Positions 2,373 to 20,424 of a stretch of DNA of 64,000 bases are shown one piece after another (position 1 is the stretch's first letter; the number at the start of each line of letters is the position of its first letter). Made by a program: the position numbers and the translations under genes. The DNA is taken from the IMG/VR virus record IMGVR_UViG_3300029286_001711; one strand, given 5' to 3'. This stretch comes from a virus. Its lineage: Duplodnaviria; Caudoviricetes. The notes under the pieces were generated by a model. The model did not search any database. It saw only the letters and a list, made by a program, of their open reading frames with translations, and was not told the origin of the DNA.

Positions 2373-2418
2373 TATAAATATCTACAACAAAGATAATGAT
2401 TATCTTGTTAATGTCAAA
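2373..2418 (-). promoter_or_regulatory. Tandem promoter elements: TTTG-N19-TATCTTTG (host-type) plus GATATTTATA (phage motif)
   Basis: Minus strand: TTTG at 2418-2415, TATCTTTG at 2395-2388, GATATTTATA at 2382-2373, 11 nt before the ATG at 2361. Confidence 0.6.
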
Positions 2419-4775
2419 GAAGAAATGTCGTTGACTTTCTCAATGTTAATAACATTGTTTGACCAGTCCTTAACTAAAGGATTATGGGTAATTAAGAGTA
2501 TATTATCAAACATTTCAGAACATTTTTGAAAGAAGTTACCAACTGATTCTAGATTTTCATTAGCCACCTTACCTAAAACCTCATCAAAAACGATGATATT
2601 TGGTTTTGGTAGTGAACTTATTCTAGATAATACAACCCTTAAAGCTAAAGAACCTATTGTCTTCTCAAAACCACTACCTTCTGTTAACAAATAACTAACT
2701 ATTTGTCCATGTTCATTCTCTCTTTCCAGGGTGAAATCAACTTCTTGTTTTGAATTTATGTCAACAGTTAGTTTAAAATCCGCTGAATCTGATAACAATC
2801 TATCTAATTCAGAGTTTAAAAGTGGCATTACGTTCTTCATAATTAATTTAGTAATACCGTTCTTACCAACCATTCTTGTGTAAATTTCGAAGATTATTTT
2901 AACCTCTTCCTCTACCTTTATGGTTTTAATCAATTCTTTGTTTTTATTTATTATGTCTTCAAATCTTTCAATATCTGATTTGTTTTTTTGTATTCTACTA
3001 ATATAATTGTCTCTTTCTCTTCTTAATCTCTCTAATTTAGCTGAATAACCCAATATTTTAGAATCTAAGTCCTTATTTTTTTCAATGTTACCAATATTAT
3101 CTTCGTAACGCTTTTTAAGGTCTTTTTTATCTTTTAATTGGTGTCTTAGATTATCTATCTCCAATTCGGTCTTGTCAATCATGATAGATTTCTTATCAAA
3201 TTCGTCAACCTTTTCTTTTATTTTATCTAACTTTTCAATCTCTTTTTTAGCCTCTTCTATTTCAACATCCAAATCACTAAGTCCTTTAATTAACTCTTCT
3301 AAGGTTAATTTATTTTGGTTGATTTCATCTGAATGGTCAACATCTTTTAGAGCTTGTTTACATAAAGAACAAAATTCACCTTCTTCAAGATTTTTAATTA
3401 AGCTTTCAACACCCTCTTTTTTAATACTTTTATGACTTCTAGCAATGTTTAAATCATTTAATTGTTGTTTCCACTCTTTATGTGTTTGTGAATCATATTC
3501 AATTTCTGATAACTTATCGAACTCTTCTTTGAGTAAATCATATCTTTCTTTTACTTTTTTACCCTTTTCAACTACAGCGTCAACTTCTCTATCAATATCT
3601 TCTGGTCTTAATTTAATAATCTCATCGTCTATATGTATTTTTTGTGATATTAAAGTCTCTTTAGTGTCATTTGTATCATCAATGTCTGTTTTTAACTGAG
3701 TTAGAGAGTCATTACATGTTTTACTGTCTAAAGTTAACTCTTCAATTTTAGTTGTTAATTCACCAACCTCTTTAGACAAATTACCAGTATTATAATATTC
3801 AGACTTAAGGTTCTTTGCCCAAGCTGATTTAATCTCTTTTACTATTTCCTCTTTCTGTTCAATGATTTCTAAACCAATAAACTTAGAAAGAAGCTTACCC
3901 TTTTGAGTTGGTAAAGTGTGAATTAATTCTTCTAGGTTGTCAGATGTTGCAATAATTGTTAATAAAAAATCGTCAACATCACCAATAGATTTTCTAATAA
4001 ATTCATCAGTTTCTCTTCTTTGTTCACCTTCTAAATTTTGAAGTGTTCCGTCAGTTAATACTCTTTGATAATTTAAATCTGTTTTAACATTATAACCCTC
4101 TTCATTCTTCTTTTTAGAACGGGTTAATGTTCTTTCAATAATATAATCACCACCATCAATATTAACTTTACCTTTAACACGAACAGTATTTGAATCCCTA
4201 AACTTATTAAAAATTTGTGCAGCAACCTTAGTTCTGGTAGTTTCATTAAAGAATAGAAACAATAACAAATCAACCGATAAAACTGTCTTACCACCCATGT
4301 TAGGTGGGTTGGAGGAGATGGTTGTTATACCTTTCAAGTTATCGAAAGTTATTCTATTTCCGTCACCATAGGATAAAAAATTATCCCATTCTAATTCTTT
4401 TATATACCAATTACGGTAACGATACTCAATGTCACGTTGTTGTTTTAACTTATCATTAACCTTATCATCAAGACGAATTATTTTATCCCAATCAACTTCA
4501 ATTTTGTTACCGTCTAACCACTCTTTAAAAAGTTTACGTTGATACGTACTATCCATTACATTGTCAGCGATAGACATTTCAACCTCCCCATGGGCTGTGT
4601 CAACTTTTTTAGGTTTAAATATTACCTGAACTTTATCGACAGAATATTTCTGAGCAATGTATTGTTCAATTCTTTTAACCCTATCTTTTGTATAGTTTTC
4701 AGGTGCATCCTCCCAAACAACACGAACTGTTGCTTTGGCGGGTATTGTGACTTTTTCTTTGGTTTTAGTTGCCAT
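2400..4775 (-). CDS. sbcC: SbcC/Rad50 (T4 gp46-like) SMC ATPase with ~120 aa N-terminal extension
   Basis: IKELEWDNFLSYG N-terminal strand, variant Walker A SNPPNMGGKT, long coiled coil with CSLC zinc hook, signature EGSGFEK, Walker B IIVFDEV, H-loop LLITH. Confidence 0.92.
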   Translation of the reverse strand: MATKTKEKVTIPAKATVRVVWEDAPENYTKDRVKRIEQYIAQKYSVDKVQVIFKPKKVDTAHGEVEMSIADNVMDSTYQRKLFKEWLDGNKIEVDWDKIIRLDDKVNDKLKQQRDIEYRYRNWYIKELEWDNFLSYGDGNRITFDNLKGITTISSNPPNMGGKTVLSVDLLLFLFFNETTRTKVAAQIFNKFRDSNTVRVKGKVNIDGGDYIIERTLTRSKKKNEEGYNVKTDLNYQRVLTDGTLQNLEGEQRRETDEFIRKSIGDVDDFLLTIIATSDNLEELIHTLPTQKGKLLSKFIGLEIIEQKEEIVKEIKSAWAKNLKSEYYNTGNLSKEVGELTTKIEELTLDSKTCNDSLTQLKTDIDDTNDTKETLISQKIHIDDEIIKLRPEDIDREVDAVVEKGKKVKERYDLLKEEFDKLSEIEYDSQTHKEWKQQLNDLNIARSHKSIKKEGVESLIKNLEEGEFCSLCKQALKDVDHSDEINQNKLTLEELIKGLSDLDVEIEEAKKEIEKLDKIKEKVDEFDKKSIMIDKTELEIDNLRHQLKDKKDLKKRYEDNIGNIEKNKDLDSKILGYSAKLERLRRERDNYISRIQKNKSDIERFEDIINKNKELIKTIKVEEEVKIIFEIYTRMVGKNGITKLIMKNVMPLLNSELDRLLSDSADFKLTVDINSKQEVDFTLERENEHGQIVSYLLTEGSGFEKTIGSLALRVVLSRISSLPKPNIIVFDEVLGKVANENLESVGNFFQKCSEMFDNILLITHNPLVKDWSNNVINIEKVNDISSLTLTR

Positions 4776-5290
4776 TATTCGTTATATAAATTTTCTCTAT
4801 CGTCTTTTGGTACCCATTTTATTGAATTTGTTGGTTTATCTCCGAATGGGTTTTCAGTCGTTTTACCGTGTTTGTTTCTGTTCTTTTCAACCTCTAATAG
4901 GGCTTCCAAATTTTCAATTCTCTGATATAGCTTACCTAATTCACTATTGGAAGTTTTATCTTTTTCTATCTTTAATTCTTTTTCTAACCTAGTGATAGTT
5001 ACTAAAAGTTCTTGAACTTGTGAATCATCTGTAATAATCTTTTCAACAATCTTTTCAGCAGGTACTTCTATAATTCTTTCTACAATTTTCTCTACTGGAA
5101 CCTCTACAATCTTTTCAACAATCTTTTCAATTTCTTTTTCTATAACTTGTGGTACAATAGGGCTGGTTCCGTATTTTTCAACAGTAAATCCTTGTATTAA
5201 AGCGTTAAGCATGAATTGGTCCACGTTGGTAATGTTATTTACCCTACAATAGTCCCATATTTCATTCTGTATGTTTTTAGGTACTTCCAT
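4775..5290 (-). CDS. Hypothetical protein with EKIVE(V/I)P repeats
   Basis: EKEIEKIVEKIVEVPVEKIVERIIEVPAEKIVEKII followed by a coiled coil. Confidence 0.75.
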   Translation of the reverse strand: MEVPKNIQNEIWDYCRVNNITNVDQFMLNALIQGFTVEKYGTSPIVPQVIEKEIEKIVEKIVEVPVEKIVERIIEVPAEKIVEKIITDDSQVQELLVTITRLEKELKIEKDKTSNSELGKLYQRIENLEALLEVEKNRNKHGKTTENPFGDKPTNSIKWVPKDDRENLYNE

Positions 5291-5490
5291 TAAAAATTGT
5301 GTGGTGTTAAAAACATTTTAATACCTATATCAGTTTTCCTACTCTCAATTAATTTTTTACGTATAACCATTAATCTTCTAATATTAACATGGTTACTATC
5401 GAAAGGGTGTCTACTTGGATCTCCCAAACTTATTTTGTTGTTCAACCACTCTAATGATTGTTCATAAGTTAATACACAACCTTCTAACAT
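5290..5490 (-). CDS. Hypothetical protein
   Basis: 66 aa, overlaps neighbours at both start and stop. Confidence 0.65.
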   Translation of the reverse strand: MLEGCVLTYEQSLEWLNNKISLGDPSRHPFDSNHVNIRRLMVIRKKLIESRKTDIGIKMFLTPHNF

Positions 5491-5705
5491 AACCTTTCTG
5501 ATTCGGTTTCAATATCCTCAATTGATTTGATTTTAAATGTATAAAACCCATAATCACTTGGTAATTTTATTAATTTATGTTCTTTGGTTTCAATATCCCA
5601 TAATACATATCCATGGTTATATGGGTCCTCACCAAAATCTTGTTGAATCATTGATGAAGGCATTACAATTGGTGTTTTACGACAAATTTTAATTTTTTTA
5701 CTCAT
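5484..5705 (-). CDS. SbcD/Mre11 nuclease, C-terminal fragment (split gene part 2)
   Basis: TPIVMPSSMIQQDFGE..HGYVLWD..PSDYGFYT corresponds to the YxGS...FxE / GY motifs that normally follow metallophosphoesterase motif V in SbcD/gp47. Confidence 0.8.
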   Translation of the reverse strand: MSKKIKICRKTPIVMPSSMIQQDFGEDPYNHGYVLWDIETKEHKLIKLPSDYGFYTFKIKSIEDIETESERLC

Positions 5706-5731
5706 TTTTTATTATTTTATTTTTAATAATA

Positions 5732-6031
5732 CTATTTAAAATTTAAATATTCTTCTTCTGTTAGAATATATTTGTTAATAAAGCCAGTTATTAAGCTACA
5801 AGTTTCTTTTATATCAGCTCTTAAAATAGCCCCTTCTATCCCATTAATTTTGGTTATATTACCCCACTCATCTAAATAAGGAGCCCTTAATCCCCAAGAG
5901 TGTTCTTTCTTAAAAGCATTCCAAACCACCATTAGTTTATTCCAATCTTCATGATAGTTTAATTCTGGTGACCAATCTACTTTCATAAAGTGAGCGAGTA
6001 TTTTATTTCCTTTTTCTTGAATTTCTGTCAT
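5732..6031 (-). CDS. Hypothetical protein inside the sbcD interruption
   Basis: 99 aa ORF, NKILAHFM...LNYHEDWNKLM; ATGA overlap with the endonuclease stop. Confidence 0.7.
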   Translation of the reverse strand: MTEIQEKGNKILAHFMKVDWSPELNYHEDWNKLMVVWNAFKKEHSWGLRAPYLDEWGNITKINGIEGAILRADIKETCSLITGFINKYILTEEEYLNFK

Positions 6032-6867
6032 AAAATTAAATCTTTATATTTATCATAATTCTTCATAAAGTTAACCATGTATTTGATGTTATTGTTTTCG
6101 CAAAATATTTTACATTGTCTGTATTTTAATGAAAAAACTTCTTTATCATCAATAAAACCTTTTACTTCCTCTATGGCTTTATCACCGTTTTTATATTCTA
6201 TATAGAAATCGGGTACATATCGTTTTGTTTTACCGTTATGTTCATATTTTATAATAAAACTATGTTTTTTAGTCCAATAAATAACATTTTCGTCACCATC
6301 TAATTCAATCATTCTTTGTTTTTCCCAAGATGAATGATATTGTTCGTCTATCTTATTTTTATTATTAAAATAATACCCCCTTTCACAATTGATGTATGTA
6401 GTATGACTACCGTCAAGTATTCTATTAGTAGTTGCTATAGATATTTTTTCTTTACCTTCTTCACTCATCATAGGGTAATGTCCGTTCTTTAGTTTATACT
6501 TTTCCCTACCTAATTGATTTTTATTTTTTCTATCCTCACTAGACCAATGTTTTTTGATAGCATCACTTATCTTTTTCTTTCTTTCATCACTGTGTTTACC
6601 CCAAGAATTTTCTCTACCATAATTACCATTGTTTTCACCCAATTGTGCGTATTTTTGCCAATCTGTTTGACATTTCTTGGAACAGAACCTTTTTTCTCTT
6701 GTTGAGTTTTTTACATATGTTACTGTATTGGTACACCCAGTGTATTCACATTTTCTTATGTCTCTCTCTAATTTTTTTAGAGATTGTGCACATATTTTAC
6801 CACAAAATTTTCTTTCTTTATGGTAGGTTTTAAATTCTTTTTGACATATCTCACATGTTTTTATCAT
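6028..6867 (-). mobile_element. Free-standing putative homing endonuclease (Zn-finger + NUMOD3 + TnsA-like PD-(D/E)xK)
   Basis: N-terminal CxxC...FCxxxC zinc modules, NUMOD3-like HSDERKKKIS and MSEEGKEKIS, C-terminal SSWE...YVPDF...IEEVKG nuclease motif. Lies between the two sbcD halves. Confidence 0.8.
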
Positions 6868-6880
6868 AATATTTTTATTA

Positions 6881-6890
6881 TATAAATATC
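6881..6890 (-). promoter_or_regulatory. Phage promoter-like motif GATATTTATA
   Basis: 13 nt upstream of the endonuclease ATG; same motif precedes many genes in the window. Confidence 0.6.
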
Positions 6891-6911
6891 ACCAAACAAG
6901 ACAAAGTCAGA

Positions 6912-7574
6912 TTAATCACAAACAACCCAACCGTTATCTAAATAATGATTTAACATAGATTCATCGGTTTCTCTTTCTTGAGTTAAATAGGTACAACTAT
7001 ACTTGTGAATATCACCACACATAACCAAATCACAACCCTCAAAGATTGATATATCTTTACCATCTTCAAATTCAAACCCAACATTAGTTTTAAGACCAAT
7101 TAAAGGATCATGATACAAACCAATATAAGTTTTATCTTCACCATATTCCAATCTTGCTTGTTCAATCTCAGGCCTCTTAGATTCTTCGATATGTCCGTAA
7201 ACACACCAAACAACATTTTCATCCAAATAACATCCTGTATGTTTTAAAAACAGAATATTTGGATTATCCATCGTTGAAATGATTGGTGACAAAGCATCCA
7301 TTCTATCAAGGTTATTAACTAAGAAGTCATGATTACCTAAAGTAACAACGGTCTTAGCAATCTTAGAACACTTCGTTAGAAATGTCATAACCATATAGAT
7401 AAGTTCTGGTGTCATCTGATTTTTAGAATGTACCAAATCACCAACAACAGTTATCCTATCTGGTTTTTGTTCTTCACATTCTTTAAAGAATCTTTCAAAC
7501 TGTTCCATATATTCTTCCTGTCTCTTAAAAAGACGGATATGGATATCTGCTGTGTGTATTATTTTTTTAATCAT
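6912..7574 (-). CDS. sbcD: SbcD/Mre11 (T4 gp47-like) metallophosphoesterase, N-terminal part (split gene part 1)
   Basis: Motifs I-V: HTADIH, VGDLVH, LGNHD, LYHDP, CGDIH; ends about 30 aa after motif V. Confidence 0.9.
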   Translation of the reverse strand: MIKKIIHTADIHIRLFKRQEEYMEQFERFFKECEEQKPDRITVVGDLVHSKNQMTPELIYMVMTFLTKCSKIAKTVVTLGNHDFLVNNLDRMDALSPIISTMDNPNILFLKHTGCYLDENVVWCVYGHIEESKRPEIEQARLEYGEDKTYIGLYHDPLIGLKTNVGFEFEDGKDISIFEGCDLVMCGDIHKYSCTYLTQERETDESMLNHYLDNGWVVCD

Positions 7575-7876
7575 ATAAAGCTATATTTAGGTAATTTTTC
7601 AATAGGTTTAAAGTCTTTACGTAATAAATGACCATATTGCCTTCTCATTTCCATTCTCACAAGTTCTCTAAGTCCTTCTACGTGGTGTTCATAAGGTACA
7701 AACCCACCCCTCAAATCATCAGCCAACTCAGGTGATAGTCTTATACGTGTAAATCTCCCCGAACCAGGTTCACATACAACTTTAGACGGTGTAAAAAAAT
7801 CTGGATGATATTGAGTTACAGATAATGTAAACCCGTATTGGCCAAACTCACTTAAAAACCATTGATACGAATCCAT
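7571..7876 (-). CDS. Hypothetical protein
   Basis: 101 aa, translationally coupled to neighbours. Confidence 0.7.
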   Translation of the reverse strand: MDSYQWFLSEFGQYGFTLSVTQYHPDFFTPSKVVCEPGSGRFTRIRLSPELADDLRGGFVPYEHHVEGLRELVRMEMRRQYGHLLRKDFKPIEKLPKYSFI

Positions 7877-8307
7877 TACAATCTATGTTTCTTCAAGTAT
7901 TTTAAAGGCTTTATCTCTATTGGGGTGTTTCTAAATTTATGTGCAAAATTTTCGGAATACATTGCAAGAATTTCAGCCTCCCAATCTATATGCTCATACT
8001 GTTTTAAATCACTAATTAAATCTTGAGCCCCCTGACTGTCCATGTAATTTGTAAAATGATCTAAAAGTTCTATTGGGTTAATGTGGTAGTATTGGTATAT
8101 ATCTAAACCATTTTCATTTGTGAATGCAACTGAAATTCTTCTTAGAACTGGAAATATGTACATGTCAACGTTACTGTACTTATTAGTAGAATCATTGATA
8201 ATATGAAGGGCTGTTCTTTCACAATTTAAACCCAACATTGTTTTTTCAATATCAGTTAGTCCAACTAAGAGACCAAATTCATCCCATTTTTTAGTTAATT
8301 CATCCAT
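7876..8307 (-). CDS. Hypothetical protein
   Basis: 143 aa, translationally coupled to neighbours. Confidence 0.7.
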   Translation of the reverse strand: MDELTKKWDEFGLLVGLTDIEKTMLGLNCERTALHIINDSTNKYSNVDMYIFPVLRRISVAFTNENGLDIYQYYHINPIELLDHFTNYMDSQGAQDLISDLKQYEHIDWEAEILAMYSENFAHKFRNTPIEIKPLKYLKKHRL

Positions 8308-9284
8308 TACTGTTTAGCCCCCACTCTGTTACCCCAAGCGTCTTTATTATTAACATTTTCTACCCTTTTATAGGCCCATCTTTCTTTCCAATGATTAACT
8401 AATGTGTCAATACTTAAATCTTTTGGTTTAAATTCTTTATCGATTCCTTTTAAAAACTCTGAGGTGTTTTCACCTCTATCACACCAATATATACCTCTAC
8501 GATTACCGTGAGTTGTTAAACGTCTAGCGTCAATACCCAAATAATCACAAGCCTTTCTAATAATGTTAATGCGGGAGTTTTTTCCACTTGTGAATTGTCC
8601 ACCAAGTATCTCACCCTCTTCTTCCTCAACAATTAACCTCATTTGTTGATACAAATCTTCATCTATTTGAACAGTTCCTTGTCCCTGGGTTAAACCCAAA
8701 TAATTGAAATGTTTAAGTCGGTTATATTGTACCCCACGACCATATAAAGACGTTACAGTAAGTCCTGCTAGGTCATCATTATACTTTTCCTTCCAATGAT
8801 TACCAACCACGTCAGATGATGCCAATAACGTTAATAACTTACCACCACACATATTATAACCAAAATGTCTGGTTGGTACACAAACTGAAATGTTTGCTAT
8901 ATTTCTATTTCTAAGAACCCTATCTTCTTTATTCCAACCAATGTGTCTATCTCTCGGACCTAAAGCTAAGAAATCGGCTGCTACATCGATAATACCCAAG
9001 TTCATACCATCAAATTGGTTTCTAACCAAGAAATAGTTATTACGACCTGGACTACGTCTGAATGGGAATGAAGAAACATGTTCTTCAATTGATTTCCATT
9101 CTCTCCATAGTTTACTTGTTGAGTCTACAGGAATTAATACGGGTAAAATGTTATTAGGATCATCAACCATACTCTCACTAATTAATAGTGGGTTAGATTT
9201 TTTAACTTGTCGGGTTTTCTGTTCCTCTTGGGATAAAAACTTAAAATTCATTAAGTCTTCTTTTAATTTTTCTCTATCAACCAT
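8307..9284 (-). CDS. DUF4338 (DruA-like) family protein, copy 2
   Basis: SPGR...LGII...LGPRDRHIGW...CVPTRHFGYNMCGGKLL...TSLYG...QYNRL motif series typical of DUF4338. Confidence 0.75.
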   Translation of the reverse strand: MVDREKLKEDLMNFKFLSQEEQKTRQVKKSNPLLISESMVDDPNNILPVLIPVDSTSKLWREWKSIEEHVSSFPFRRSPGRNNYFLVRNQFDGMNLGIIDVAADFLALGPRDRHIGWNKEDRVLRNRNIANISVCVPTRHFGYNMCGGKLLTLLASSDVVGNHWKEKYNDDLAGLTVTSLYGRGVQYNRLKHFNYLGLTQGQGTVQIDEDLYQQMRLIVEEEEGEILGGQFTSGKNSRINIIRKACDYLGIDARRLTTHGNRRGIYWCDRGENTSEFLKGIDKEFKPKDLSIDTLVNHWKERWAYKRVENVNNKDAWGNRVGAKQ

Positions 9285-20414: not shown

Positions 20415-20424
20415 TATAAATATC
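20415..20424 (-). promoter_or_regulatory. Phage promoter-like motif GATATTTATA
   Basis: 14 nt upstream of the GTG at 20400. Confidence 0.6.

Follow-up and report, generated by a model that had tools for sequence, protein, structure and literature searches.

The 64,000-nucleotide stretch of lake-water phage DNA analysed here (Caudoviricetes; IMG/VR record IMGVR_UViG_3300029286_001711; hereafter the window) carries on its minus strand an mre11/sbcD gene that is divided into two open reading frames (ORFs), an upstream or N fragment of 220 amino acids (aa) and a downstream or C fragment of 73 aa, with an endonuclease gene and a small passenger ORF lying between them. The explanation that best accounts for the locus as a whole, and that we hold to be very probable, is that a free-standing homing-type endonuclease gene invaded mre11/sbcD where motifs V and VI of the phosphoesterase are joined by a beta-hairpin turn. 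What moves is the entire 1317-bp cassette, the 5' end of which gives the upstream part a 28-residue acidic tail and a stop codon, while its 3' end supplies the downstream part with an ATG and a basic leader. The 220- and 73-aa polypeptides would then be translated separately and, by non-covalent complementation of the beta-sheet, make up a single Mre11 nuclease domain again, with the oppositely charged tail and leader adjoining at the break and probably aiding capture or stabilisation of the complex. The endonuclease itself probably cuts intact sbcD near the conserved motif V coding sequence, and the cassette would spread by recombinational repair in co-infection, carrying tail and leader along.

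The insertion boundaries were defined by blastn against the syntenic intact allele of another locus (L001), a 262-aa gene whose core is 86% identical to that of the window and which is followed by a 63-aa gene, a 229-aa gene and a 791-aa SbcC gene. DNA homology to L001 runs up to position 6999, at the H-K-Y codons, and starts again from 5681, at the R-K-T codons, indicating that the insert substitutes for 15 bp encoding Q-V-M-N-H (Table 1). The break thus lies two codons past the motif V histidine. An identical left boundary was found in a pair of nearly identical loci, split L004 and intact L127, which share 98.8% identity over 1300 nucleotides (nt) until homology ends right after the H-K-Y codons, at the first tail codon, and whose protein cores are 99% identical. 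All junctions of the window were spanned by contigs from other lake-water runs with 0 differences, indicating that the split is not a misassembly. Read joints skipping parts of the region were also seen and rejected, their sides of 21-35 letters with 85% likeness being attributed to other organisms or repeats. The division of sbcD around two genes, with non-coding gaps of 44 and 26 nt, is exactly as claimed in an earlier description made from the sequence alone (the original prediction), and the alignment with intact relatives that it had proposed placed the break. Its arrangement was correct and its two fragments are colinear parts of SbcD, but the last 28 aa of the N fragment and the first 8 aa of the C fragment are cassette-borne, and the conservation of this tail and leader had been overlooked.

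Table 1. Features of the split mre11/sbcD locus and its downstream neighbours in the window
Feature	Position	Strand	Size	Basis or remark
sbcD-N	6912..7574	minus	220 aa	ORF list
sbcD/mre11 N-fragment core, phosphoesterase motifs I-V, ending in G-D-I-H-K-Y	6999..7574	minus	residues 1-192	Metallophos, PHROG SbcD-like, L001 DNA homology
Cassette-borne tail, net charge -5, plus stop, in frame with the N fragment	6912..6998	minus	28 codons
Spacer holding the recurrent motif	6868..6911	minus	44 nt
Endonuclease, homing-type, free-standing	6028..6867	minus	279 aa
Passenger ORF	5732..6031	minus	99 aa	start overlaps endonuclease stop by ATGA
Gap between passenger ORF and sbcD-C	5706..5731		26 nt
sbcD-C	5484..5705	minus	73 aa
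Cassette-borne leader (M-S-K-K-I-K-I-C, basic), in frame with the C fragment	5682..5705	minus	ATG + 7 codons
Body of the sbcD/mre11 C fragment: motif VI region, final beta-strands of the nuclease domain	5484..5681	minus
Whole cassette	5682..6998	minus	1317 bp	blastn against L001
66-aa gene	5290..5490	minus	66 aa	downstream operon partner
171-aa gene	4775..5290	minus	171 aa	downstream operon partner
sbcC/rad50	2400..4775	minus	791 aa	PHROG SbcC-like, E 2e-47

The host gene was identified as Mre11/SbcD by several routes. The N fragment matched the Pfam family Metallophos (E 2.9e-14) and the PHROG 'SbcD-like' (E 2e-17), all 13 of the 13 matches of a PDB profile search were Mre11/SbcD proteins (best E 3.6e-12), and the same was true of the top 23 Foldseek matches (template-modelling scores, TM, 0.63-0.71) of an AlphaFold model of an intact homologue (predicted local distance difference test, pLDDT, 90.7). 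Motifs I-V had been assigned to the N fragment by the original prediction, and every metal-binding motif is indeed present there; split and intact alleles alike show little or no variation at residues D10, H12, D46, N81, H82, H155 and H190, and motif V reads G-D-I-H, not G-H-x-H. The break comes directly after this motif and ahead of the P-x-S/G-S motif VI region, at a place that in the modelled intact homologue is a turn between strands 193-197 and 200-204. The C fragment alone gave no Pfam or PHROG family match. It is colinear with the final ~63 residues of intact homologues 261-263 aa long, to which it is 82-90% identical; its body is 89% identical to the C-terminal 62 residues of the intact protein P0004, and in the alignment the part from R-K-T-P-I-V onward is the SbcD C-terminus absent from the N fragment, in agreement with the earlier assignment of the 73-aa ORF. 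When the N fragment was compared with 5.8 billion proteins, 2268 relatives were found, mostly 259-276 aa in length and matching only the ~193 first query residues. The capping domain and the Rad50-binding helix-loop-helix are absent from these intact homologues, which end soon after the nuclease domain, so that this is a short Mre11 lineage irrespective of the split. The Rad50/SbcC partner gene is adjacent in the window, in a gene order equal to that after intact sbcD in L001, and the region from sbcD-N through SbcC/Rad50 is organised as a single minus-strand operon. Megablast of the region against GenBank phages gave no match; the nearest cultured relatives, Microcystis phage Mel-JY01 and Tenacibaculum phages, stand at 26-37% protein identity.

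Close relatives carry an unbroken gene of 261-262 aa. In a survey of the 80 best IMG/VR sbcD loci, 12 were split, 1 was re-fused and 67 were intact; relatives free of the endonuclease are mostly intact (L001, L127 and these 67 loci) and not all split in the same way, an outcome in favour of the original prediction. A split at the same site was found in many uncultured phages (L004, L005-L007, L009-L011, L013, L015-L019, L088, L119, L123 and L124), and the inserts differ in composition: L006, L007 and L013 hold a 279-aa endonuclease together with an unrelated 77-aa ORF, L009-L011 an endonuclease and no passenger ORF, and L015-L019 an endonuclease 43-48% identical to that of the window, with the C-fragment start abutting or overlapping the endonuclease stop in the simpler cassettes. 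Among the 120 cores placed in a maximum-likelihood tree, the split ones are scattered over at least 7 places between intact ones, and the split P0001 is 99% identical to the intact P0007. Comparison of synonymous divergence (dS) in the window/L006/L009 pairs gave lower values in the endonuclease (0.22-0.34) and the tail (0.24-0.46) than in the sbcD core (1.0-1.5) and the C body (1.1-2.0). The synonymous divergence of the tail therefore tracks that of the endonuclease and not that of the host gene, and values 3-5 times below those of the host gene indicate that the cassette is mobile, tail included, and much younger than the genes surrounding it. The window and L004 show the reverse pattern, with 87% identity in the core, 36% in the tail and 62% in the endonuclease; like cores combined with unlike tails and endonucleases indicate separate acquisitions.

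Later stages of the cassette are also represented. Only the first 31 endonuclease codons remain in L062, in frame with the C fragment, and only a 3' endonuclease remnant remains in L118, with sbcD-N and sbcD-C open in both. In L045 and L046, which come from two samples, the endonuclease is gone entirely and the gene is still split, with a spacer of 14 nt. Their sister L014 (protein P0099, 292 aa) has a single ORF in which stop, spacer and start are now translated after small indels, and L060 represents a second, independent re-fusion. At L062:3741-4061, an internal deletion has created a 106-aa ORF that joins a zinc knuckle to the SbcD C fragment, with the original leader ATG still inside it. 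At L048:3726-4282, the endonuclease position after an N fragment with an L006-type tail is taken by an unrelated ORF, at least 185 aa long, and the locus ends ahead of any C fragment. Another candidate, L012, with overlapping N and C ORFs and no insert, was set aside as a probable frameshift error in a 3x long-read assembly.

Prediction of the fragment complex gave a score of 0.83 versus 0.00 for the best control, with runs agreeing in at least 93% of contacts and a partner pLDDT of at least 65; of solved complexes, 58 of 80 attain this mark, and of mismatched pairs 2 of 110, counts that are only rough because own alignments were used. In the predicted complex the C fragment completes the beta-sheet of the N fragment: its strand 33-38 lies against N residues 3-8, the first strand of that fragment, its residues 11-14 are paired both with N residues 183-186 and with the tail's first strand (194-197), and the interface includes tail residues 198-220 and leader residues 2-10. 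The non-covalent assembly suggested in the original prediction agrees with this score, with purifying selection on both fragments and with the persistence of the split after decay or loss of the endonuclease, and we infer that it takes place. In all split alleles examined the tail is 27-28 aa long, has an invariant G-W near its end, bears a net charge of -3 to -6 and is without counterpart in intact homologues. The charge polarity, with the tail at -3 to -6 versus the leader at +4 to +6, is kept in 9 of 9 loci, tail and leader are still conserved at ~45% SbcD identity, and the ratio of nonsynonymous to synonymous divergence (dN/dS) of the tail is mostly below 0.7 (0.13-0.68; one pair 1.2). These properties suggest a role for the oppositely charged extensions in bringing or holding the two fragments together.

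Several points weigh against this account and have to be set beside the evidence above. The complex prediction largely rebuilds a known single-domain fold, so that a pass is expected and shows compatibility, not affinity. The dN/dS of the tail is only moderately low, is calculated over 28 codons and rests on saturated dS. In the split NrdA of Aeromonas phage Aeh1, the tails are dispensable for fragment pairing and needed only for higher-order assembly (PMC3045599). As regards the proposed promoter, a sigma70 consensus scan of the window gave 17 sites versus 19.6 expected, which is not above chance, and a count below expectation makes the scan no evidence by itself; the 5' RNA hairpin that is significant at other split loci is not significant in the window (z 0.27), and the value for L009 was z -0.89.

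The alternative that best survives, which we regard as unlikely but still to be reckoned with, is that tail and leader are passive insertion scars and assembly proceeds via the native Mre11 interface, or that the tails serve Mre11 dimerisation or Rad50 contact in the manner of Aeh1 NrdA. The low-error predicted contacts are mostly native beta-sheet contacts, Aeh1 NrdA fragments without tails still heterodimerise (PMC3045599), and the tail is less conserved than the core in distant pairs (25-43% versus 47-57% identity), all of which would fit such scars. By contrast, a fixed tail length, an invariant G-W, a charge polarity that never varied among the loci compared and is retained at distant SbcD identities, and a dN/dS that is mainly low speak against passive sequence. 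Moreover, the net charge is gone from both segments in the re-fused P0099, although this is a single case and the fused L060 retains part of it.

Far less probable is an opposite order of events, in which a loop-bearing fused form of the P0099/L060 type was ancestral and the endonuclease entered an existing loop, so that tail and leader would be host sequence. Tail-like and leader-like segments do stand in frame in the fused alleles, and the first 5 tail residues are similar to the native strand found in certain intact alleles (Q-T-I-Y-L; L122, P0017). However, P0099 is nested within a split clade as sister to the split P0108 (support 100/96), and its extra residues are, small indels apart, the translated stop, spacer and start of an endonuclease-free split allele. 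The loop is missing from 101 of the 102 unsplit proteins of the tree, and both the synonymous divergence of the tail, which follows the endonuclease, and the end of homology at the first tail codon in the L004/L127 pair speak against a tail derived from the host gene.

An interrupted gene may also be a decaying one, in a phage that no longer needs its own Mre11, but we consider a pseudogene very improbable for the split sbcD. The dN/dS of the N core was 0.05-0.10 between split alleles and 0.07-0.09 between split and intact alleles, as compared with 0.065 between intact alleles, and that of the C body was 0.08-0.17 among split alleles, so that both fragments are constrained like intact alleles. 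The catalytic residues are all retained, sbcC is intact downstream, and dozens of split alleles, diverged to 45% identity, keep both ORFs open, those with a decayed endonuclease included.

Introns and inteins commonly house homing endonucleases, and T4 gene 60 uses ribosomal bypassing. Most published 'fractured genes' rely on split inteins (PMC2677866), yet a split intein, a group I intron or bypassing during translation is hardly conceivable as a means of joining the two sbcD fragments covalently: a permissive Rfam scan (E<=1) of 4500..8500 gave 0 matches, no Hint/intein Pfam domain was found in either fragment at E<=0.1, tail and leader add up to 36 aa (28 + 8), far too short for an intein, the first tail residue varies (S/Q/N/G), the leader does not end in His-Asn, both extensions are conserved at the protein level, the 14 nt from stop to start in the endonuclease-free split allele are too short for an intron, and the 1.2-kb gap of the window holds two translated genes. 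The scans thus agree with the earlier claim that neither intron nor intein is present. Derivation of the tail from a degenerate intein, conceivable as remote ancestry, was considered as well and set aside, as the tail is too short, several clades are without a conserved nucleophile, and there is no C-intein and no splicing capacity.

In the endonuclease of the window, two Cys4 zinc knuckles and a G-x-N-N-G-N-Y-G segment resembling NUMOD3 precede a TnsA-like PD-(D/E)xK domain at the C-terminus. Of the label given to it in the original prediction, the PD-(D/E)xK part is well founded, with TnsA-like_N (PF08722) scoring 31.4 bits versus a cut-off of 26.5, but the NUMOD3 part (PF07460) is weak at 14.2 bits versus a cut-off of 20.4; the corresponding scores are 32.8 bits in L021 and 19.9 bits in L005. 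Comparison of 17 homologues showed the eight cysteines to be fully or almost fully conserved, D220 and E234 to be invariant and K236 nearly so, and the dN/dS of the gene (0.14-0.21) is consistent with an active gene. All homologues at least 42% identical lie within sbcD at the same site. The enzyme of the window has no DUF559 or Vsr match, whereas the endonuclease of L005, inserted at the same site, matches DUF559 with 25.3 bits versus a cut-off of 20.6. The two types, that of the window and that of L005 and L119, share the N-terminal ~140 residues (29% identity, E 9e-14), comprising the two Cys4 knuckles and the NUMOD3-like segment, and differ in the C-terminal domain, TnsA-like versus DUF559/Vsr-like. 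Because the SbcD cores and tails of L016 (TnsA type) and L119 (Vsr type) are 62% and 64% identical, respectively, whereas their nuclease domains are unlike, the catalytic domain has been swapped in place. Related genes were also encountered in other positions. At L021:3087-7426, a related 290-aa NUMOD3/TnsA-like endonuclease directly precedes and overlaps an unsplit gene for a fused SbcD-SbcC protein of 1156 aa, which is the classic intergenic free-standing arrangement, here beside a fusion form of SbcD. In L009, the split sbcD is flanked on the opposite strand by two endonuclease-like ORFs (L009:2355-3347 and L009:5214-6098, minus strand), one of 330 aa with a faint LAGLIDADG_3 match and one of 294 aa that is 39% identical to residues 49-141 of the window endonuclease, and these surroundings look like a hotspot of mobile nucleases.

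The 44-nt spacer ahead of the endonuclease contains the motif GATATTTATA at 6881..6890 (minus), overlapping a sigma70-like TTGTCT-N16-TATAAT (6904..6877). On the coding strand, ATATTTATA occurs in 9 copies, 7 of them within the intergenic 4.2% of the window and 6 located 4-18 nt before an ATG, and the copy in the spacer stands 13 nt before the endonuclease ATG. TATTTAT(A/G) is conserved ahead of the endonuclease in nine split loci and lies inside an RNA hairpin over the endonuclease start that is significant in L005 (z -5.2), L018 (z -3.2) and L015 (z -2.8). The ATATTTATA copy ahead of the endonuclease is probably a phage promoter for that gene, from which transcripts would extend over the downstream genes. 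The motif that had been described in this gap is real; however, the proposal that the endonuclease brought the promoter expressing the C fragment is tempered by the endonuclease-free L045, in which the gene is split by the 14-nt spacer, showing that expression of the C fragment does not depend on a cassette promoter. The copies of (G/A)ATATTTATA at 4-18 nt before starts are found at 2373..2382 and 20415..20424 and from 28517, 40289, 49828 and 62632 on (minus); if this is a -10-like element, so short a distance to the ATG would imply short or leaderless mRNAs. Apart from this motif, the 10-mer TGGTGATATT occurs at 7008..7017, within the motif V sequence coding for C-G-D-I, and at 6885..6894 (minus), 123 nt downstream in the endonuclease 5' spacer, where it directly abuts the promoter-like motif. 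The window contains the 10-mer 3 times versus 0.31 expected, and 1 of 100 shuffles reaches 3; the repeat could be a homing-site mimic or an operator, as for I-TevI, or it could be due to chance.

Homing endonucleases are usually tolerated since introns or inteins repair the host gene. To our knowledge, only few cases are known of a gene left in pieces with its proteins reassembling, namely Aeh1 NrdA, possibly T4 gp39/gp60, and one metagenomic SbcD locus. That locus, from Lake Gatun, was described by Dassa et al. in 2009 (Nucleic Acids Res 37:2560, PMC2677866) as N and C halves of an SbcD-like protein around a Vsr-like endonuclease, with no intein; compared with intact SbcD, its upstream ORF is extended by about 25 residues at the C-terminus and its downstream ORF by nine at the N-terminus, and these authors proposed that the invading element provides stop, start and control elements. 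The window shares with it the host gene family, the freshwater origin and a free-standing endonuclease between the halves without an intein. The hairpin and late-promoter design described for such endonucleases is matched by relatives of the window, in which the 3' end of the endonuclease abuts or overlaps the downstream start, and L005, L088 and L119 fit the published description, Vsr/DUF559 domain included. By contrast, when compared by that description, the window differs in having a TnsA-like PD-(D/E)xK domain instead of a Vsr-like one, a passenger ORF and no significant 5' hairpin. The arrangement has therefore been known since 2009 and the kind of system is not new; the original prediction interpreted it soundly but overlooked this publication, and a full-text literature search of a limited collection found no later study of split SbcD.

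The closest functional parallel is nrdA-a/mobE/nrdA-b of Aeromonas phage Aeh1, in which a free-standing endonuclease has likewise interrupted an essential gene between two beta-strands, the insertion has contributed unique tails of opposite charge, and assembly proceeds without RNA or protein splicing, as we infer for the window (Friedrich et al. 2007; PMC3045599). Crona et al. (2010) reported that these tails are essential for split Aeh1 NrdA and predicted that insertion-derived tails may be a general, overlooked antidote (PMC3045599). Also, mobE overlaps the nrdA-b start, as does the endonuclease in relatives of the window cassette. The two systems differ in host gene (ribonucleotide reductase versus Mre11) and endonuclease (HNH versus PD-(D/E)xK), and the polarity is reversed, with a basic tail on the Aeh1 N fragment and an acidic one in the window; Aeh1 is a single case whose function was proven biochemically, whereas here dozens of diverged alleles and decay stages are available, with a presumed function. 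T4 gp39/mobA/gp60 is similarly split with a mob endonuclease and has tail-like extensions of complementary charge according to Crona et al. (PMC3045599), in a different enzyme. Fractured genes with split inteins (such as gp41-1, NrdJ-1 and IMPDH-1) resemble the window in their order of N part, endonuclease and C part, their aquatic phage origin and the charge complementarity of their halves (PMC2677866), but are rejoined covalently by trans-splicing inteins, which the window does not have. As for the enzyme, I-Ssp6803I and the Vsr-like EDxHD enzyme I-Bth0305I (PMC3239194) also use a restriction-enzyme fold for homing and have modular N-terminal DNA-binding regions; unlike these intron-encoded enzymes, that of the window is free-standing and is predicted to use the canonical D...E-x-K of TnsA-like_N and not a Vsr-like site.

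The novelty lies in the TnsA-like type of nuclease domain, in the passenger ORF, and in a series found in nature that runs from alleles with an active or decayed endonuclease through an endonuclease-free split to a re-fused gene with a scar. A broader proposal, for which we see about even chances, is that these cassettes form a modular homing-endonuclease family, with one DNA-binding module, exchangeable TnsA- and Vsr-like domains and a portable kit of tail-stop and start-leader that makes invasion of an essential nuclease gene selectively neutral, and that its full life cycle is preserved in nature. This cycle would lead from invasion through endonuclease decay to a permanently split gene and finally to re-fusion with a scar of ~30 residues, and with such a family, many natural alleles would for the first time allow a test of whether the tails are needed. 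With dozens of diverged natural alleles, two nuclease-domain types, decayed or lost endonucleases and two independent re-fusions, an anecdote becomes a comparative data set that opens the role of the tail, the homing target and the reversibility of gene fracture to direct testing. For annotation, the 220- and 73-aa ORFs are better named as two subunits of one Mre11/SbcD than as a truncated nuclease and a hypothetical protein.

The 99-aa passenger ORF gave no Pfam or PHROG match, and 6 homologues (E<=1e-3) were found among 1.84 billion representatives, located in runs of small phage ORFs in contexts unrelated to sbcD. Its slot in the cassette is vacant in L009, L005 and L015-L018, and is taken in L006 by the unrelated 77-aa ORF.

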